Of a stretch of DNA of 64,000 nt, positions 28,221 through 34,862 are shown piece by piece (the stretch's first letter is position 1; every line of letters starts with the position of its first letter). The notes beneath the pieces are model-generated. The model saw nothing but the letters and a program-made list of their open reading frames with translations, was not told the DNA's origin and did no database searches. The translations under genes were made by a program, and so were the position numbers. Where the stretch lies: contig OY760937.1 of NCBI GenBank assembly GCA_963664225.1, forward strand, positions 64,001 to 128,000. Direction: 5' to 3'. The DNA is from Verrucomicrobiia bacterium (GTDB lineage: Bacteria > Verrucomicrobiota > Verrucomicrobiia > Limisphaerales > UBA1319).

Positions 28221-29012
28221 TCACCTGATCAAAATCGCATCCTGCAAACGCTTCAAATCACGGTCATTCGCGCGTTTTGGCGGATAAAAGTCCAGTTGCT
28301 TGATCGTTGGCGTGGTGGGTTCCAACCATTTCCAAATTTCCGCGTGGCCATCCGCAAAGGACAGACTGCCACTTTTGTTATGTCTCGCGGAGGGCGCATT
28401 CTGAAAATCGCTGGGATTGGTTCCCACCGGAATGGCGAAATAACCGTCATCGATGGTGTAATCGTTCTCATCAATGAAGACCATGCACCGGACCGGATCC
28501 GGTTTCTTGATGTCGGTCAACTTGCGAAAATCGGGATAAGTCGGGCCTTGGACCCAATCCACATCGCTGTTCATTCGTCCATTCATGGAGAAGCTGCGAA
28601 CTTTGGAAATAGTTGTGGGAGCGTTGTTGATGACGGCTGCTTTATCTGCGGGACAACGATAGGTATCGAGCGCGGCATTGTATTTATAAAGCAGGCCAGA
28701 TCGGATATCGCTCTGGTTGGTAACGCCAGGGAATGCGGCCACATTGTTTCTGATCCACGCGTAGGTGTCGCTGATATGGTTGGGCACCAGCACCTCGTTG
28801 TAGTCTCCCGAATAAAGAACCCATCCCATGGTCAGTTGCTTCAAGTTGCTGATGCATCGGATGCCGAGGGTTTTGGACTTTGCCTTGCTAAGGGCGGGCA
28901 ACAACATGCCCGCCAGAATGGCAATAATGGCGATAACCACGAGCAGTTCGATGAGCGTAAACCCGGAGCGCCGGGAGGGCTGTAAATTCTGAAATGATTT
29001 TGACAGGGTCAT
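28221..29012 (-). CDS. Prepilin-type N-terminal cleavage/methylation protein (pseudopilin-like, H-X9-DG)
   Basis: [44 protein letters not shown]. Confidence 0.92.
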
Positions 29013-29511
29013 AATTACACACATTTGGTTTACAGGATTCGCCCTATATCTAACTTAAATCCCGTTGGCCGTCCTTCACAATGACGCCTCATATTAGGAT
29101 TTTATGGCCAGTGCTCACCGCAAGTTTCTTTGACCGCTCTCAAGCTAAACCACGATGTATTTTCACGCAATGGGGCTTTTCAATGTCGATTCATTCGGGG
29201 AGGAACGATAATCTTCCAAAGGAGTGAAAAGCTGCAACAGGTTGGGGTGGAGATTCTACAATGGAAGCGTGGCGGCGGATTGCCGTTGTGCGTGCCTTGT
29301 GTTGCGATCTCATAAGCCACCGCTTCGAGACGGGGGACATGTCGGGCTGAATCGTTAAACCGCGTGCAATGGCTCTTTGCCTCCTGTCGCAGGGTCGGGG
29401 AAATTTGTGTGCGTGACAAATTTCCGGGATTCAAAAACACCGCGCTCCACTGGTGGCAAAATGGGAAACACAGCGTTTGATCCGGGCATTGGCTCTGATA
29501 CATTGAGAACA

Positions 29512-29982
29512 ATGCATCCGACCCTCTGGCTTCGCGCGAAGACCGAGCGGCTTTTTCGAATCAAGGACACGCCGCACGCCCTGGCGCTCGGTGTGGCCGT
29601 GGGGATCTTCTTTGGATTCGTTCCGCTGGTGGGACTTAAGACTTTGCTCGCGCTCGGTGTCACGCGGTTGTTGCGCGGCAACTTGCTGGCGGCGGCGATA
29701 GCGGTAACGCTGCATGACGTGATGCTTCCGCTCGCACCGCTTTTGCTGCGCTGGGAATACGATCTCGGCTTTTGGATCTTGAGCCATCCGCACGCGTTCC
29801 CGCCACGCCTTCATTTGATCCATCAAAGTCCGTCCGCCTGGCTCCACTGGTCCACCTTTTTAACCGTGGGCCGACCGTTGCTGGTCGGCTCCATGGTGTT
29901 CGCCGTGCCTTTTGCGCTCGCAACGTATTATCTGACGCTCTGGTGGGTCAACCGCAGGCGTCGGAGGGATGTTGCGGTTTAA
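29512..29982 (+). CDS. DUF2062 family membrane protein
   Basis: DTPHALALGVAVGIFFGFVP motif and hydrophobic helices. Confidence 0.85.
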   Translation: MHPTLWLRAKTERLFRIKDTPHALALGVAVGIFFGFVPLVGLKTLLALGVTRLLRGNLLAAAIAVTLHDVMLPLAPLLLRWEYDLGFWILSHPHAFPPRLHLIHQSPSAWLHWSTFLTVGRPLLVGSMVFAVPFALATYYLTLWWVNRRRRRDVAV

Positions 29983-30145
29983 CCCGAAATCCGAAATACG
30001 AATGGTCAAGATGATGCAATGCTTTGAGGCAGCCATGATTTGCAATCGGCGAGGGTGTATTAAATCAATACTCCACAGCCGGTTTCAAACCATGGATGGC
30101 CAAATGATTGCGTCAGATGGGCCGTTCCTATTTCGGATTTCGGGT
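29982..30145. mobile_element. 164-bp MITE-like element with 17-bp perfect terminal inverted repeats and probable TTA target duplication
   Basis: acccgaaatccgaaata (29982-29998) is the reverse complement of tatttcggatttcgggt (30129-30145); TTA at 29979-29981 and, once the intron is removed, at 32121-32123. Confidence 0.7.
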
Positions 30146-32120
30146 GTGCGCCAGTGAAATTGGTAGCCTCGTGGGTGAAAGTCCCGCCGGTCGAATTAGA
30201 CGGTTCACGACCGAAATGCAGCGTCCGGGACGAGGCCGTGAGGCCGAACCACAAGCGGGACGCTGAAAGAACTGTCGGGTCGTAACGAAAGTAAACCTCA
30301 TCAAATGAGCTCCGAAACCGAAATAACCGGTAAGCCGAGCCGCTACCCGAACGGCGAAGGCAGAAACGCGGCGTCATCAAATCGTCAAATGGGCGCTGTT
30401 GATTCCGGCGGAGTCAGCGAGGGCGACACGACAGGAAGGGAAACCAAGGTAAGCTGGGAGATCTCTGGAGGCGGGGCGATAAAGCCTCAACCGCCGGTGC
30501 AAGGAGGAACACCCTCCGAGGCCGCACGGGCAGCCAGAGAAGTCGGAGTCTTCCATAGTAGCGAAGAAGCTGGGGCGACCAAAACCCCGGCGGAGCCAAG
30601 GGAAGGCACTTGGATCGAAGCGAATCAAAACAGCGAGGGACAGGGAGATGGCCTTGAGGGAGTGGAAACACTTTTTCAACGGATAACAACCCCGATAAAA
30701 GTTCAAAAGCTGCAGCGAGCGCTATATTGCAAAGCCAAGGCTGAGCCGAAGTATCGGTTTTACAGCCTCTACGGAGAACTGCTGCGGAAGGACGTGCTGG
30801 AAACGGCAATGGCCTCCGTGGCGCACAACAATGGCGCGGCTGGGATCGACGGGCAGACATGCGACGTCTATCTTGCCAGCGACGAAGCCTGGGACCAATG
30901 GCGGAACCAACTGCTGGAGGAGTTACGCACGAAGAAGTATCGGCCAAGCCCGGTGAAGCGTGTGTATATACCAAAAGGAGACGGGAAGCTGCGACCCCTG
31001 GGCATCCCGACAGTGAAAGACCGGGTGGTGCAGACAGCGGTGGTGATTGTATTGCTGCCGATTCTGGAAGCCGATAGTCATCCGAACAGTTACGCCTATC
31101 ATCCCAAACGCAATGCCCACCAAGCAATGGAGGCGATCAAGAAGGCTACGCTGACAGGACGCGTCGAAGTTATAGACGCGGACTTAAGCGGGTATTTTGA
31201 CAGCATTCCCCACAGGCGTTTGTTGCGCATAGTGGCCAAGCGGGTCAGCGATGGAACAATTCTCAAGCTGATCGCAGGATGGCTGCGCGCGCCCGTGAAT
31301 GAACCGCAAAGCGACACAGGGAAAGGCGGGACAAAGGGGGGGCAAGGTCAGAATCGACGGGGGACTCCGCAAGGCGGGGTTGTATCGCCGATTTTAGCCA
31401 ATGCATACCTCAACCAGTTGGATTGGGAAGTCAACGAACGCTGCGAACTCAAACCCGTGATGGTGAGATACGCGGATGATTTCGTGATACTCGGACAGCC
31501 GGGGCAGGGACGGGAACTGATGGAACGACTGGAACGATGGCTGAAGCAACGCGAGTTAGTGCTCAACGAGAAGAAGACCCGCTTGGTGGACCTCCGCCAG
31601 GATGGCATCAAATTCTTGGGATTCGCGCTAACAATGCGACAGGGGAAGGGGAAATGGAAATATCCGCATGTGGAACCCCATCCCAAGAGCCAGAAGAAGT
31701 TTCGAGACGGGATTCGGGAGAAACTCAACCGAAGCACGCTATGGCGTGATATCGGAGAGGTGATTCCCGAGCTCAACAAGAAACTCAAAGGTTGGAAGGG
31801 TTACTTTCACTACGGGAACAGCACCAAGGTGATGGGCCAGATGAACGAATACGTCAGCAGCAAGTTACAACGATGGTTGTGGCGCAAACACGGATGTAGT
31901 CGGGCGCAATGGTCCACATACCCCAAGGAGGATCTCTATGAGCGTTATGGTTTATACCAAATGCCGGAATATGCGGCATGGAAACGATGACGTCGAAGCG
32001 ATGCAACGTATGATCCCCGGAGAGCCGGATGCGGGAAAACCGCCTGTCCGGTTCGATGAGGGGCGAAATGCGACGGTCATTGGCCACGGCCATTCAATCC
32101 GTCCATTTCGCCTACTCTAC
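30146..32120 (+). mobile_element. Group II intron (AGC-triad domain V, IIB-like; class E/F-like RT without En domain)
   Basis: 5' GTGCG at 30146; domain V gagccggatgcgggaaaaccgcctgtccggttc (~32022-32054); domain VI ending cctactctAC at 32120; EBS1/EBS2 complementary to the upstream exon. Confidence 0.92.
30662..31990 (+). CDS. ltrA: Group II intron reverse transcriptase/maturase
   Basis: RPLGIPTVKDR, DADLSGYFD, TPQGGVVSPILAN, YADD and maturase X domain (LNKKLKGWKGYF). The ORF opens at 30305, but that part overlaps intron domain I, so the real start is probably ~30662. Confidence 0.95.
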   Translation: METLFQRITTPIKVQKLQRALYCKAKAEPKYRFYSLYGELLRKDVLETAMASVAHNNGAAGIDGQTCDVYLASDEAWDQWRNQLLEELRTKKYRPSPVKRVYIPKGDGKLRPLGIPTVKDRVVQTAVVIVLLPILEADSHPNSYAYHPKRNAHQAMEAIKKATLTGRVEVIDADLSGYFDSIPHRRLLRIVAKRVSDGTILKLIAGWLRAPVNEPQSDTGKGGTKGGQGQNRRGTPQGGVVSPILANAYLNQLDWEVNERCELKPVMVRYADDFVILGQPGQGRELMERLERWLKQRELVLNEKKTRLVDLRQDGIKFLGFALTMRQGKGKWKYPHVEPHPKSQKKFRDGIREKLNRSTLWRDIGEVIPELNKKLKGWKGYFHYGNSTKVMGQMNEYVSSKLQRWLWRKHGCSRAQWSTYPKEDLYERYGLYQMPEYAAWKR

Positions 32121-32129
32121 TTAAACAGA

Positions 32130-34862
32130 TCAATCCGGCTGAAGCGTTTTTATTTCGCCCATGCCCAGATCCTTCAAGCTGGGTTCAATTTTTGAGCGGT
32201 CACCGACAATGATCCAGACCATCTGATCAGGATGCACCACTTGGCCGACGGCGCGGCTCAGATCGTCGGTCTTCAGGTCGAGAACCGTTTGCGGATATTT
32301 TATGAAGTAGTCTTCCGGCAGTCCAAAATGGACGATTTCGCCAATCGAACTTGCGACCGAGGAGCTGGTTTCCCATCGACCCGCGAGCGTGAGCGTTTCG
32401 TCCTTCTGCGCCTTGGCGAGTTCTTCCGCAGACGGCAGTCGCGAGCCCACGATCTCTTTTAACTCCCGGCTTATTTCCAGGACGGCTTCCTTTGTCTTGT
32501 CCGATTGAACGGGAGCGACCACAAGGAAGGGCCGTTGACCGATCGCATCCACAATCGAGGAACGCACGCCATAGGACCAATGCTTGTCCTCGCGCAGGTT
32601 CATGTTCAGGCGCGAGGTGAAGCTCCCGCCGAGGATGTGATTCAAGGATTCGATGGCGGTTTCGTCCGGATTGGCGCGCGAAGGAGCGAGGTCGGCTGCG
32701 ATAATGACGGATTGAGCGGCGCCGGGTCGGTCCATGATGTAAACAGCGGATTGGGCCGGGGGCGTCACAGCGGCAAGGTTCTTAATCGGGACATCGCCGG
32801 GTTTCCACGAGGCGAAGATCTTTTCCAGTTTGGGTGTGATTTCCGCCAGGGTGGTGTCACCCACGACAATCAGAGTGGCGTGGTTGGGTTTGAACCATGT
32901 GTCGTAGAACTTCCGGGTGTCGGCCGCGGTGAGTTTGGAAACGGACGCGGCATCGCCCGAGCCTGTGAACGGCGTGCTGTAGGCATGACCCGCGCCGTAA
33001 AGGAGCCGCGGCACCACGCGCATGGCCATGCTCCTGGGGTCGTTTTGCTCGCGCTGAATGCCATCGAGCTGTTGCTGTCTGACGCGCGCGAAATCGGCTT
33101 CGTGAAAGGCGGGATGCAACACGAGGTCGGCAAACAACTCCAGCGACGGATCCAGATTCGCCTTGAGCGCGTAGAGGGAAACGGACGAGGTATCGAGATC
33201 GGAGGACATGCCGAGCCTTGCGCCGAGCCGTTCCGCTTCGTCGCTGATTTGAAGGGCGGTCCGCTGTTCGGTGCCCTCGTCGAGGAGGTTCATGGCGAGT
33301 TTCGCCGTGCCGGGAACGGCGAACTGATCGGCGGCGTAACCGGCATCCACCTGGAGCGTGGCGTTCACCAGCGGCACCGCGTGGCGTTCCGCCAGCACCA
33401 CTTTCAAACCGTTGGAGAGTGTTGCAGTCTGCAATTTTGGAAACTCAACGGTCGGCTTGATGGTGGGCACGGGCAACTTTGACCGGTCCACAGTGGAAGT
33501 CGTGGCGCTGAACTGTGGGAACGGATGGACTTCGAGCACATAAGCGCCATCGGAAAGCCACGCCTTTGCGGTATTCTGCAAATCCTGCGCGGTCGCCTCG
33601 TTCACCCGACGGAGCGTGGTGCGATATGCGGCTGGGTCGCCCAAATAAACCTGGTTTTCCGCGAGCACGTCCGATTTCCCGCCAAAGCCGCCAATGCGTT
33701 CGACTCCCCGCACGAACCCGGCGAGCGATTGGGTCTTCACGCGCTGCAATTCATCGGCGCTCGGTCCCTCCGCAAGGAACTTTGCCAATTCCTCGTCCAC
33801 TGCTTTTTCCACCTTCTCCAGTGGCACTCCCGGCCGCGCGGTGGCAACGATATAAAAGCGGCCGCCGATTTCACTTAAATCCGCGAAGGCATTCACGCTG
33901 CTGGCAATTTGCTCGTCAAACACAAGCCTCCGGTAAAGACGGGACGATTTGCCGCCCGCGAGCACGTCCGCGCCAAGCGAGAGAAAATCACCTTCCGCGG
34001 TTCCGAATTGGGGGATGTTCCAAACTTTGTAGAGACGCGCCTGGGGCACGCGGTCCTGCGCGATTTGCCGGTGCGTGCCCGTGCGCTTCGCAATCCAGGC
34101 CTGCTGGCGCGTGACCGGCGGCCCGGACGGGATGTCGCCAAAATATTTCTCCACCTTCGCCAGCGCGTCCTGCGGATTCACATCACCCGCGACAACCAGC
34201 GTGGCGTTGGCCGCGCCATAATAGGATTTGAACCAGGTGCGCACGTCGTCCAGACTCGCGGCGCTCAAATCCTCCATCGAGCCAATGACCGTCCACGAAT
34301 ACGGGTGGCCGGGAGGATACGTGCCCTTGGTGATGAGTTCATGGGTCAGGCCGTAGGGCTGGTTTTCGCCCTGGCGCTTTTCGTTCTGCACCACACCGCG
34401 CTGCTCGTCGAGCCGTCCCTGGTCGATCACGCCCAGCAGGTGACCCATCCGGTCGGACTCCAGCCAGAGCAGATAATCGAGGGCATCCTTTGGGGCGTCC
34501 TCGAAATAGTTCGTCCGGTCTTCACTGGTGGTGCCGTTCATATCCGTGGCGCCGACTTTCTCCGTGGCCTTGAAGAAGTCGTCATTGAAGTGCTCGCTGC
34601 CGTTGAACATGAGATGCTCGAACAAATGCGCGAAGCCGGTCTTGCCGGTCCGCTCGTTCTTGGACCCAACATGATACCAGACATTGACGGCGACAATGGG
34701 CGCCTTGTGATCCTCATGCACAATGAGCGTCAGTCCATTGGTGAGGACGAACTTTTGGAATGGAATGTCAATGGCCGGAATGGCGGAACCGGCAGCCGGG
34801 GCGGCCAGGGCGGCGGCACACAGGCCGAACGTCAACACGGTGGACAAAAGGATCGATTTCAT
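32130..34862 (-). CDS. Secreted M16 family zinc metallopeptidase (insulinase/PqqL-like, two-domain)
   Basis: Signal peptide; GFAHLFEHLMF (HxxEH); second LSNGL repeat; SRLNMNLRE. Confidence 0.93.
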   Translation of the reverse strand: MKSILLSTVLTFGLCAAALAAPAAGSAIPAIDIPFQKFVLTNGLTLIVHEDHKAPIVAVNVWYHVGSKNERTGKTGFAHLFEHLMFNGSEHFNDDFFKATEKVGATDMNGTTSEDRTNYFEDAPKDALDYLLWLESDRMGHLLGVIDQGRLDEQRGVVQNEKRQGENQPYGLTHELITKGTYPPGHPYSWTVIGSMEDLSAASLDDVRTWFKSYYGAANATLVVAGDVNPQDALAKVEKYFGDIPSGPPVTRQQAWIAKRTGTHRQIAQDRVPQARLYKVWNIPQFGTAEGDFLSLGADVLAGGKSSRLYRRLVFDEQIASSVNAFADLSEIGGRFYIVATARPGVPLEKVEKAVDEELAKFLAEGPSADELQRVKTQSLAGFVRGVERIGGFGGKSDVLAENQVYLGDPAAYRTTLRRVNEATAQDLQNTAKAWLSDGAYVLEVHPFPQFSATTSTVDRSKLPVPTIKPTVEFPKLQTATLSNGLKVVLAERHAVPLVNATLQVDAGYAADQFAVPGTAKLAMNLLDEGTEQRTALQISDEAERLGARLGMSSDLDTSSVSLYALKANLDPSLELFADLVLHPAFHEADFARVRQQQLDGIQREQNDPRSMAMRVVPRLLYGAGHAYSTPFTGSGDAASVSKLTAADTRKFYDTWFKPNHATLIVVGDTTLAEITPKLEKIFASWKPGDVPIKNLAAVTPPAQSAVYIMDRPGAAQSVIIAADLAPSRANPDETAIESLNHILGGSFTSRLNMNLREDKHWSYGVRSSIVDAIGQRPFLVVAPVQSDKTKEAVLEISRELKEIVGSRLPSAEELAKAQKDETLTLAGRWETSSSVASSIGEIVHFGLPEDYFIKYPQTVLDLKTDDLSRAVGQVVHPDQMVWIIVGDRSKIEPSLKDLGMGEIKTLQPD

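Follow-up and report, generated by a model that had tools for sequence, protein, structure and literature searches.

An endonuclease-less group II intron at the outer tips of the inverted repeats of an IS1380-family element and its MITE

What brings an intron to rest directly behind the very last base of a transposon? The question is raised by a 64,000-nt stretch of the genome of a Verrucomicrobiia bacterium (contig OY760937.1, positions 64,001 to 128,000 of the forward strand; hereafter the window), in which a group II intron directly adjoins the right terminal inverted repeat (TIR) of a 164-bp miniature inverted-repeat transposable element (MITE) on one side and the TTA duplication of that element's target site on the other. 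A first-pass annotation of the sequence had read the intron as a parasite of a multicopy MITE or insertion sequence (IS) end, which it would recognise through its exon-binding sites (EBS1 and EBS2, pairing with the intron-binding sites IBS1 and IBS2 of the 5′ exon); its anatomy of the locus, including the TIR and TTA flanks, is correct, and every coordinate it gave checks out against the window's sequence (Table 1). From the distribution of the intron across the host genome and from its relatives in other genomes, we conclude that it is very probably active, combining a IIB-type ribozyme with an endonuclease-less intron-encoded protein (IEP) and homing to the TIR tip common to an IS1380-family IS and the MITE.

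Table 1. Features of the intron locus, with positions counted from the first base of the window.
Feature	Position	Strand	Remarks
Left target-site duplication TTA (3 bp)	29979-29981		
MITE, 164 bp	29982-30145		
Left TIR acccgaaatccgaaata, 17 nt	29982-29998	-	Minus strand is a vacant copy of the homing site, followed by TAA (genome site C1:93982)
Right TIR tatttcggatttcgggt, 17 nt	30129-30145		Perfect inverted match to left TIR
IBS2 tatttcgg	30129-30136	+	Exon -17 to -10; complements 30318-30325 at 8/8 positions
IBS1 ttcgggt	30139-30145	+	Exon -7 to -1, final 7 bases of right TIR; invariant in 19/19 copies
Complete group II intron, 1975 nt, GUGCG...CUAC	30146-32120	+	One of 19 identical genomic copies
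Domain I core, Rfam RF02005 (group-II-D1D4-6)	30178-30423	+	54.9 bits, cut-off 49, full model 1-225
Putative EBS2 ccgaaaua	30318-30325	+	Within 12-nt internal loop 30315-30326 (Rfam structure; RNAalifold loop columns 28-39)
EBS1 acccgaa	30345-30351	+	Terminal loop of gccg/cggc hairpin (Rfam alignment and RNAalifold)
IEP open reading frame, reverse transcriptase and maturase (X)	30665-31990	+	GTG start at 30665 is a guess; frame open back to 30305
Domains V/VI, Rfam RF00029	32020-32120	+	49.3 bits, cut-off 40; domain V is GAGCCGG...CCGGUUC
Right TTA duplication	32121-32123		3′ exon +1 to +3; +4 is A

A census of the host genome (G000), a single contig of 5.78 Mb, recovered 19 full-length copies of the intron that are 100% identical to one another. 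In all 19, the 5′ exon ends TCGGA[T/G]TTCGGGT, 13 nt that are the same in every copy apart from T or G at position -8, while the 3′ exon begins TAAA or TTAA, with T at +1 and A at +3 and +4 throughout. The exact 17-nt TIR occurs 39 times and its 13-nt core 51 times. These core matches comprise 19 filled by the intron, 29 that are empty and run on into TAA or TTA, and 3 others, giving 48 usable ends, of which 19 are filled and 29 empty. The heptamer TTCGGGT is present 602 times in the genome, and the intron is found only at the 19 preceded by TCGGA[T/G]. The TIR is thus multicopy and its end forms the 5′ exon of every copy in this genome, in agreement with the annotation of the intron as a parasite of such ends.

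These ends belong to two kinds of element. The MITE is represented by ~20 full copies, which are 94-100% identical and ~75% self-complementary along their whole length. The IS is 1534 bp long and is present in 5 identical copies whose termini (ACCCGAACTCCGA...) are near-identical to those of the MITE; it encodes a 474-residue transposase that matches NCBIfam NF033539, the IS1380-family equivalog, at 227 bits (cut-off 180), as well as Pfam DDE_Tnp_1_4. The MITE TIR acccgaaatccga and the IS TIR acccgaactccga agree at 12 of 13 positions, and both elements carry 3-bp TWA duplications in a T/TWA/A context, which match in 18 of the 19 true left-right pairs (a twentieth 'pair', consisting of a MITE half beside an IS, was omitted from this count). 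On the basis of these common termini and duplications, the 164-bp element is a MITE of the 1534-bp IS1380-family IS.

The intron is distributed over 13 MITE ends (7 at one end of the element, 6 at the other), 3 right and 1 left ends of the IS, and 2 lone TIR-like sites. One lone site, C1:2065437, lies in unique sequence directly after the stop codon of a gene, and the other, C1:3974268, consists of the final 16 nt of the TIR fused to a different repeat; neither has a partner TIR within 3 kb. Among complete elements, 16 carry exactly one intron, 3 carry none and 0 carry two. The 3-bp duplication brackets the element together with its intron in 15 of the 16 that carry one, which places the intron between TIR and duplication. 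At the locus in the window, the left TIR is empty, as expected by the first-pass annotation, which had regarded it as an unoccupied site on the opposite strand. A separate observation concerns triple nesting at C1:828002-831676 and C1:2984654-2988329, where an IS splits the centre of a MITE and itself carries the intron at one tip; as the IS lies in opposite orientations in the two cases, the TTAA-like MITE centre appears to be an IS hot spot in its own right.

To what extent is the TIR recognised by base pairing? Related introns, five of them at full length with 76-78% nucleotide identity (L013-L017) and three at 66-71% (L019, L021 and L003), have 5′ exons that resemble neither the TIR nor one another. 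Using a domain I alignment, we found that the EBS1 loop nevertheless forms 7/7 Watson-Crick pairs with the end of the exon (positions -7 to -1) in each of the 8 introns whose exon was available, EBS1 having changed together with the exon: the EBS1/IBS1 pairs are ACCCGAA/TTCGGGT, ACCTGAA/TTCAGGT, CCACGGA/TCCGTGG, TCCTGAA/TTCAGGA, GCATCCA/TGGATGC, CCGCAGA/TCTGCGG, ATCCCAA/TTGGGAT and GCCGTAA/TTACGGC. This covariation proves the EBS1 assignment, and the domain I folds from Rfam and RNAalifold agree with the gccg/cggc loop in which the first-pass annotation had placed it. The covarying EBS1 loops of the eight relatives illustrate how readily such introns are retargeted in nature, a point of interest for targetron design.

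The assignment of EBS2 (CCGAAAUA, 30318-30325) is plausible from its structural setting and its pairing. It falls in a hypervariable 12-nt internal loop between two helices with compensatory changes (RNAalifold on 9 sequences; Rfam), and a perfect 8-nt complement between this loop and exon positions -25 to -8 arises in 154 of 100,000 shuffled loops. The first-pass annotation had chosen this loop and had counted 15 of the 17 TIR bases as recognised; the loop is the correct one, and both the 8/8 pairing and the count hold for the MITE TIR, but at the other occupied sites only 4-7 contiguous pairs are kept in the same register (by hand reading, 4 and 5 at the right and left ends of the IS, respectively, and 4 and 7 at the lone sites). 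The pairing leaves a 2-nt linker at -9/-8, and -8 is the one target position that varies, between T and G, among the 19 occupied sites. Common to all sites is the requirement TCGG..TTCGGGT followed by T at +1. An alternative EBS2, UCCGAAA at 30311-30317, pairs 7/7 with exon positions -15 to -9 and was rejected because most of it lies in a helix (30310-30314) whose pairs change in a compensatory manner (six sequences have C-G, two have U-A and one has G-C; RNAalifold).

The intron itself begins with GTGCGCC at 30146 and ends with CCTACTCTAC, closing with CTAC at 32120. Its GUGCG and CUAC ends, together with scores above the gathering score for both RF02005 and RF00029, identify a group II ribozyme, and a match of 356 bits to TIGR04416 (cut-off 300) identifies a mobile, open reading frame (ORF)-containing group II intron. 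Pfam gives RVT_1 (1.8e-34) and GIIM (1e-13) alone on the IEP, with no endonuclease domain among its matches; YADD is visible in the translation, and the protein ends 25 residues past the GIIM match, as an endonuclease-less IEP would. Endonuclease-less IEPs make up classes C, D, E and F and some of CL. With regard to the ribozyme, a single domain I arm carries EBS1 in its terminal loop and EBS2 in an internal one, and both pair with the 5′ exon, which is the IIB-type arrangement. Group IIC does not fit the 7-bp covarying EBS1, the EBS2 loop, or the use of IS ends 1.5 kb apart and of lone sites, and the first-pass annotation's exclusion of that class is supported by the first two of these. The Rfam 15 paper does not state which intron class RF02005 represents. 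When plasmids were searched with the IEP (tblastn), the matches listed were at most 41.7% identical and bore generic 'ltrA' names only, and no Sinorhizobium record was found among the 90 listed.

Why, then, is only one end of an element filled? The strand of the intron changes along the contig: copies at 0.05-0.95 Mb and at 2.99-5.61 Mb are on the plus strand, those at 1.66-2.19 Mb on the minus strand. Replication arms were derived from the detrended GC skew, which puts the terminus at ~1.24 Mb and the origin at ~3.68 Mb, and the strand bias of long ORFs yields the same arms. On the favoured strand, which is G-rich and on which the intron would enter the lagging-strand template, 17 sites are occupied and 10 empty, compared with 2 occupied and 19 empty on the unfavoured strand (Fisher p = 2.5e-4). 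Local skew alone gave 15/4 for occupied against 10/19 for empty sites (p = 0.003), and where its size exceeds 0.03, 13/13 occupied sites are on the G-rich strand (counted from the table of sites). The two homing sites per element that the first-pass annotation had envisaged do exist, but they are not equivalent: of the 19 insertions, 17 are at the presumed lagging-strand site, and no element has both sites filled. Endonuclease-less introns are described as using the replication fork for priming, with a lagging-strand bias (PMC4424553, PMC5894124; here and below, PMC numbers refer to the parts of the texts available), and such a bias would account for the absence of doubly filled elements. When the GC skew is cumulated along the 5.78 Mb of the genome, the curve ends without closing (+116,000) and has a flat stretch from 1.8 to 3.6 Mb, a shape that points to unequal replication arms or to recent rearrangements, in which the 19 identical introns of 2 kb and the copies of the IS may have taken part.

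On these grounds we infer that the intron spreads by retrohoming. Intron RNA and its reverse transcriptase/maturase would engage a TIR by pairing EBS1 (ACCCGAA) with the last 7 TIR bases and EBS2 (CCGAAAUA) with 4-8 bases further inward across the 2-nt linker at -9/-8, and the RNA would reverse splice precisely at the boundary of TIR and duplication. The first bases of the 3′ exon, T-W-A-A, would be supplied by the transposon's own TTWAA insertion preference, and each new transposition would thereby make two potential homing sites on opposite strands. The protein would be unable to cut the second strand, and only the end on the lagging-strand template would be filled, primed from the fork. A homing site would in this way be assembled from two sources, the transposon tip and the transposon's preferred insertion sequence, with the consequence that the intron does not disable its host element.

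Several points weigh against this account. Two occupied sites, C1:2986269 and C1:3648844, are on the unfavoured strand, the latter 32 kb from the inferred origin; the odd GC skew makes the replication arms approximate; and the equation of the G-rich strand with the leading strand is a general rule, assumed here for the host organism. The nearest solved structures to the IEP are 7uim (8e-53) and GsI-IIC (8.6e-48), which we take to be IIC-type reverse transcriptases, followed by the TeI4h reverse transcriptase 6me0 (6.5e-46), which we take to be IIB, so the PDB search fails to separate the two types and the ORF class of the IEP is not settled by it. EBS2 pairing is weak in the relatives, with 3-6 bp in the same register by hand reading and no helix of at least 5 bp in the EBS2 loop among the best helices listed by an automatic search; because of this weakness, the importance of EBS2 is one that we infer. 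In a search for splicing or empty alleles, contigs of sequencing runs X3-X6 showed no joint across 30146-32120, which, since contigs break at repeats, carries no information either way, and the identity of all 19 copies could partly come from assembly polishing.

Is the intron tied to this one repeat? Related introns were sought in 60 relatives of the host, 14 of which gave any match and 3 a match longer than 500 nt, at 74% (G048), 71% (G034) and 68% (G005) identity, all in fragmentary assemblies; a genome of the same genus that is 93% complete (G001) gave no match among those scored. A sister case is found in genome G061, in which the intron of locus L015 has 77% nucleotide identity to that of our host, and where at least 16 contigs end in or hold the start of that intron. 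All 10 distinct sites examined there (10/10) follow ...ATCCGTGnnATCCGTGG, which is the arm end of a ~75-nt palindromic repeat of CACGGATNA nonamers unrelated to the MITE. The 17-nt end pattern has 271 hits in G061 at up to 2 mismatches, compared with 0 for a reversed control, and the 3′ exons fall into three repeated families, all beginning with T. Around the palindromic repeat lie longer flanks, themselves repeated, which form three families. In this relative, the intron has been retargeted via EBS1 to the arm ends of another abundant palindrome. The 17-nt exon ends of L016, L013 and L017 occur 1, 2 and 9 times in their own fragmentary genomes (controls 0, 0 and 1). Repeat targeting is accordingly a tendency rather than a rule, and the idea of a 'repeat specialist' is supported in 2 of the 5 genomes tested.

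A wider conjecture, which we think unlikely to be right, is that a lineage of endonuclease-less introns may re-programme EBS1 time and again, on each occasion to the outermost arm of a palindromic repeat that abounds in the host: the TIRs of IS1380-family IS and MITE in our host genome, the nonamer-array palindrome in G061. Insertion at the foot of the repeat might be selected because the transposon stays functional and keeps up a supply of fresh sites with its TTWAA as 3′ exon, and because lagging-strand synthesis stalled at the foot of a hairpin would offer a 3′ end at +1 to prime reverse transcription. If true, an intron that works by base pairing would have converged on the 'after stem-loop' niche of group IIC.

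The sister case also bears on the strongest competing explanation, in which targeting is assisted by structure as in IIC introns, and a hairpin adopted by the palindromic MITE in single-stranded DNA is needed by the intron or for its priming; the stem itself would then be what is recognised, or a lagging-strand 3′ end stalled there would serve as primer, either of which would place the insertion at the 3′ foot, a position that pairing by itself would leave unexplained. The 164 nt of the MITE fold into a single long hairpin, in which exon position -1 is the final base to pair; at all 10 sites in G061, the sister intron directly abuts the arm of an unrelated palindrome; and IIC introns insert after terminator and attC stem-loops (PMC4424553). 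Even so, we consider this explanation improbable. The intron occupies 4 of the 5 copies of the 1534-bp IS despite the 1.5 kb that separates the two TIRs of this element; the two lone sites are occupied with no partner TIR within 3 kb (a partner could have been lost later); the 3′ arm contains both IBS1 and IBS2, which a formed hairpin would hide; and 5 of the 7 relatives with at least 140 nt of upstream sequence show no hairpin that ends at the junction.

Homing by EBS/IBS pairing also accounts better for the data than movement of the intron as cargo, in which a composite of MITE plus intron or IS plus intron would be mobilised by the IS1380-family transposase. Members of the IS1380 family, ISEcp1 among them, are able to move neighbouring DNA, and a TWA duplication that brackets element and intron is what a composite transposon would give. 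This explanation is nonetheless very hard to sustain: the intron is joined to either end of the MITE, either end of the IS and lone sites; the attached MITEs differ (94-100% identity) while the introns are identical; the 3′ end of the intron (cctactctac) is unlike the TIR; and neither the replication-strand asymmetry nor 15 nt of EBS/IBS complementarity would be expected. Least credible of all is an assembly artefact or chance, in the form of collapsed or mis-joined repeats, which could draw on the single contig, the odd GC-skew curve and the identity of all 19 copies, but which is countered by 19 different 3′ flanks, by duplications that match the far side of the element, by an intron contig depth of 157 in run X3 against ~10.5 for unique flanks, and by an intron variant with 7 differences on the same TIR in metagenome run X6.

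How does homing to a TIR tip compare with known systems? The homing of a group II intron to IS inverted repeats has already been published for RmInt2 of Sinorhizobium meliloti GR4, all copies of which lie in the inverted repeats of ISRm17 (PMC4615759). RmInt2 is described there as endonuclease-less, with a 2-nt linker at -8/-9 and a lagging-strand bias, and by comparison of these traits RmInt2/ISRm17 is the closest precedent: an endonuclease-less IEP, IS inverted-repeat targets on opposite strands, lagging bias and a 2-nt linker are common to both. Both introns also appear to tolerate short IBS2 pairing (4 bp; PMC4615759). They differ in that the present intron inserts just beyond the last TIR base and leaves the repeat whole, while RmInt2 is described, in the available part of its report, as lying within the inverted repeats. 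They differ further in the 3′ exon, which here is flanking DNA fixed only by the TTWAA preference of the transposon, and in the main host, which here is the non-autonomous MITE of an IS1380-family IS, with 19 identical copies of the intron.

Other introns in mobile DNA resemble the present one in partial occupation of their sites and in near-identical copies, namely RmInt1 (in ISRm2011-2) and, in Enterobacteriales, the IS-homing E.c.I1, E.c.I3, E.c.I4 and E.c.I9 (PMC5894124, PMC3522654); copy number can be comparable, with 15 copies of E.c.I4 in one strain and 26 of c-Ha.de.I1 (PMC3522654). The RmInt1 site lies within the IS, and insertion there is reported to block spread of the IS (PMC5894124), whereas the transposon described here is left intact. 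For the Escherichia coli introns, the available parts of the reports name the target ISs and do not state the positions (PMC5894124, PMC3522654). Group IIC introns likewise lack an endonuclease and insert right 3′ of a DNA inverted repeat (PMC4424553, PMC3522654). In contrast to the present intron, with its 7-bp covarying EBS1, EBS2 loop, IBS within the repeat arm and use of partnerless sites, they are described in the available text as having only EBS1 and EBS3 and as recognising a stem-loop. A literature search, with subscription journals outside its scope, returned nothing on introns at MITE or IS1380 tips or at the exact outer edge of a TIR. New here are insertion at that edge and the sister intron on the arm ends of an unrelated palindrome in another genome. 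The known picture of group II intron biology is unchanged by these results. With 48 near-identical sites, 19 of them filled, and an either/or choice of end, the locus and its copies provide a natural data set on colonisation of a genome by an endonuclease-less intron. The set can be read as an in-genome record of a lagging-strand bias known until now mainly from plasmid assays with RmInt1 and RmInt2.

A second group II intron family is present in the same genome, with 4 copies that are ~95% identical (C1:1676575, 2331182, 5161454 and 5605822) and score 70.4 bits with RF02005. Its common sequence seems to begin at TGGAAAGCGCC rather than GUGYG, and a loose T(T)TGAG motif recurs in the flanks upstream of it, which have no link to the MITE.

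Sequencing contigs and neighbouring genes yielded further observations at the locus. Depth in runs X4 and X5 is very uneven, reaching ~18,700 over domain V/VI, and loose contig ends at 32018-32020 and 32060-32063 indicate that other introns share domain V there. Contigs of runs X3, X4 and X5 link 30010 to 30104, leaving out 93 bases inside the MITE, which may reflect a shorter MITE variant or a path of the contig graph across the palindrome. Upstream, the MITE landed on the stop codon of a 201-aa ORF (window 29377-29982), whose TAA was restored from the duplication and the first MITE base. The intron is co-oriented with this ORF, so read-through transcription from it could express the intron; the next gene (32130-34862, minus strand) is convergent. 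Further upstream, an ORF on the minus strand (28221-29024) has a prepilin-type N-terminal signal and presumably resembles the large H-X9-DG-type families of Planctomycetota and Verrucomicrobiota.

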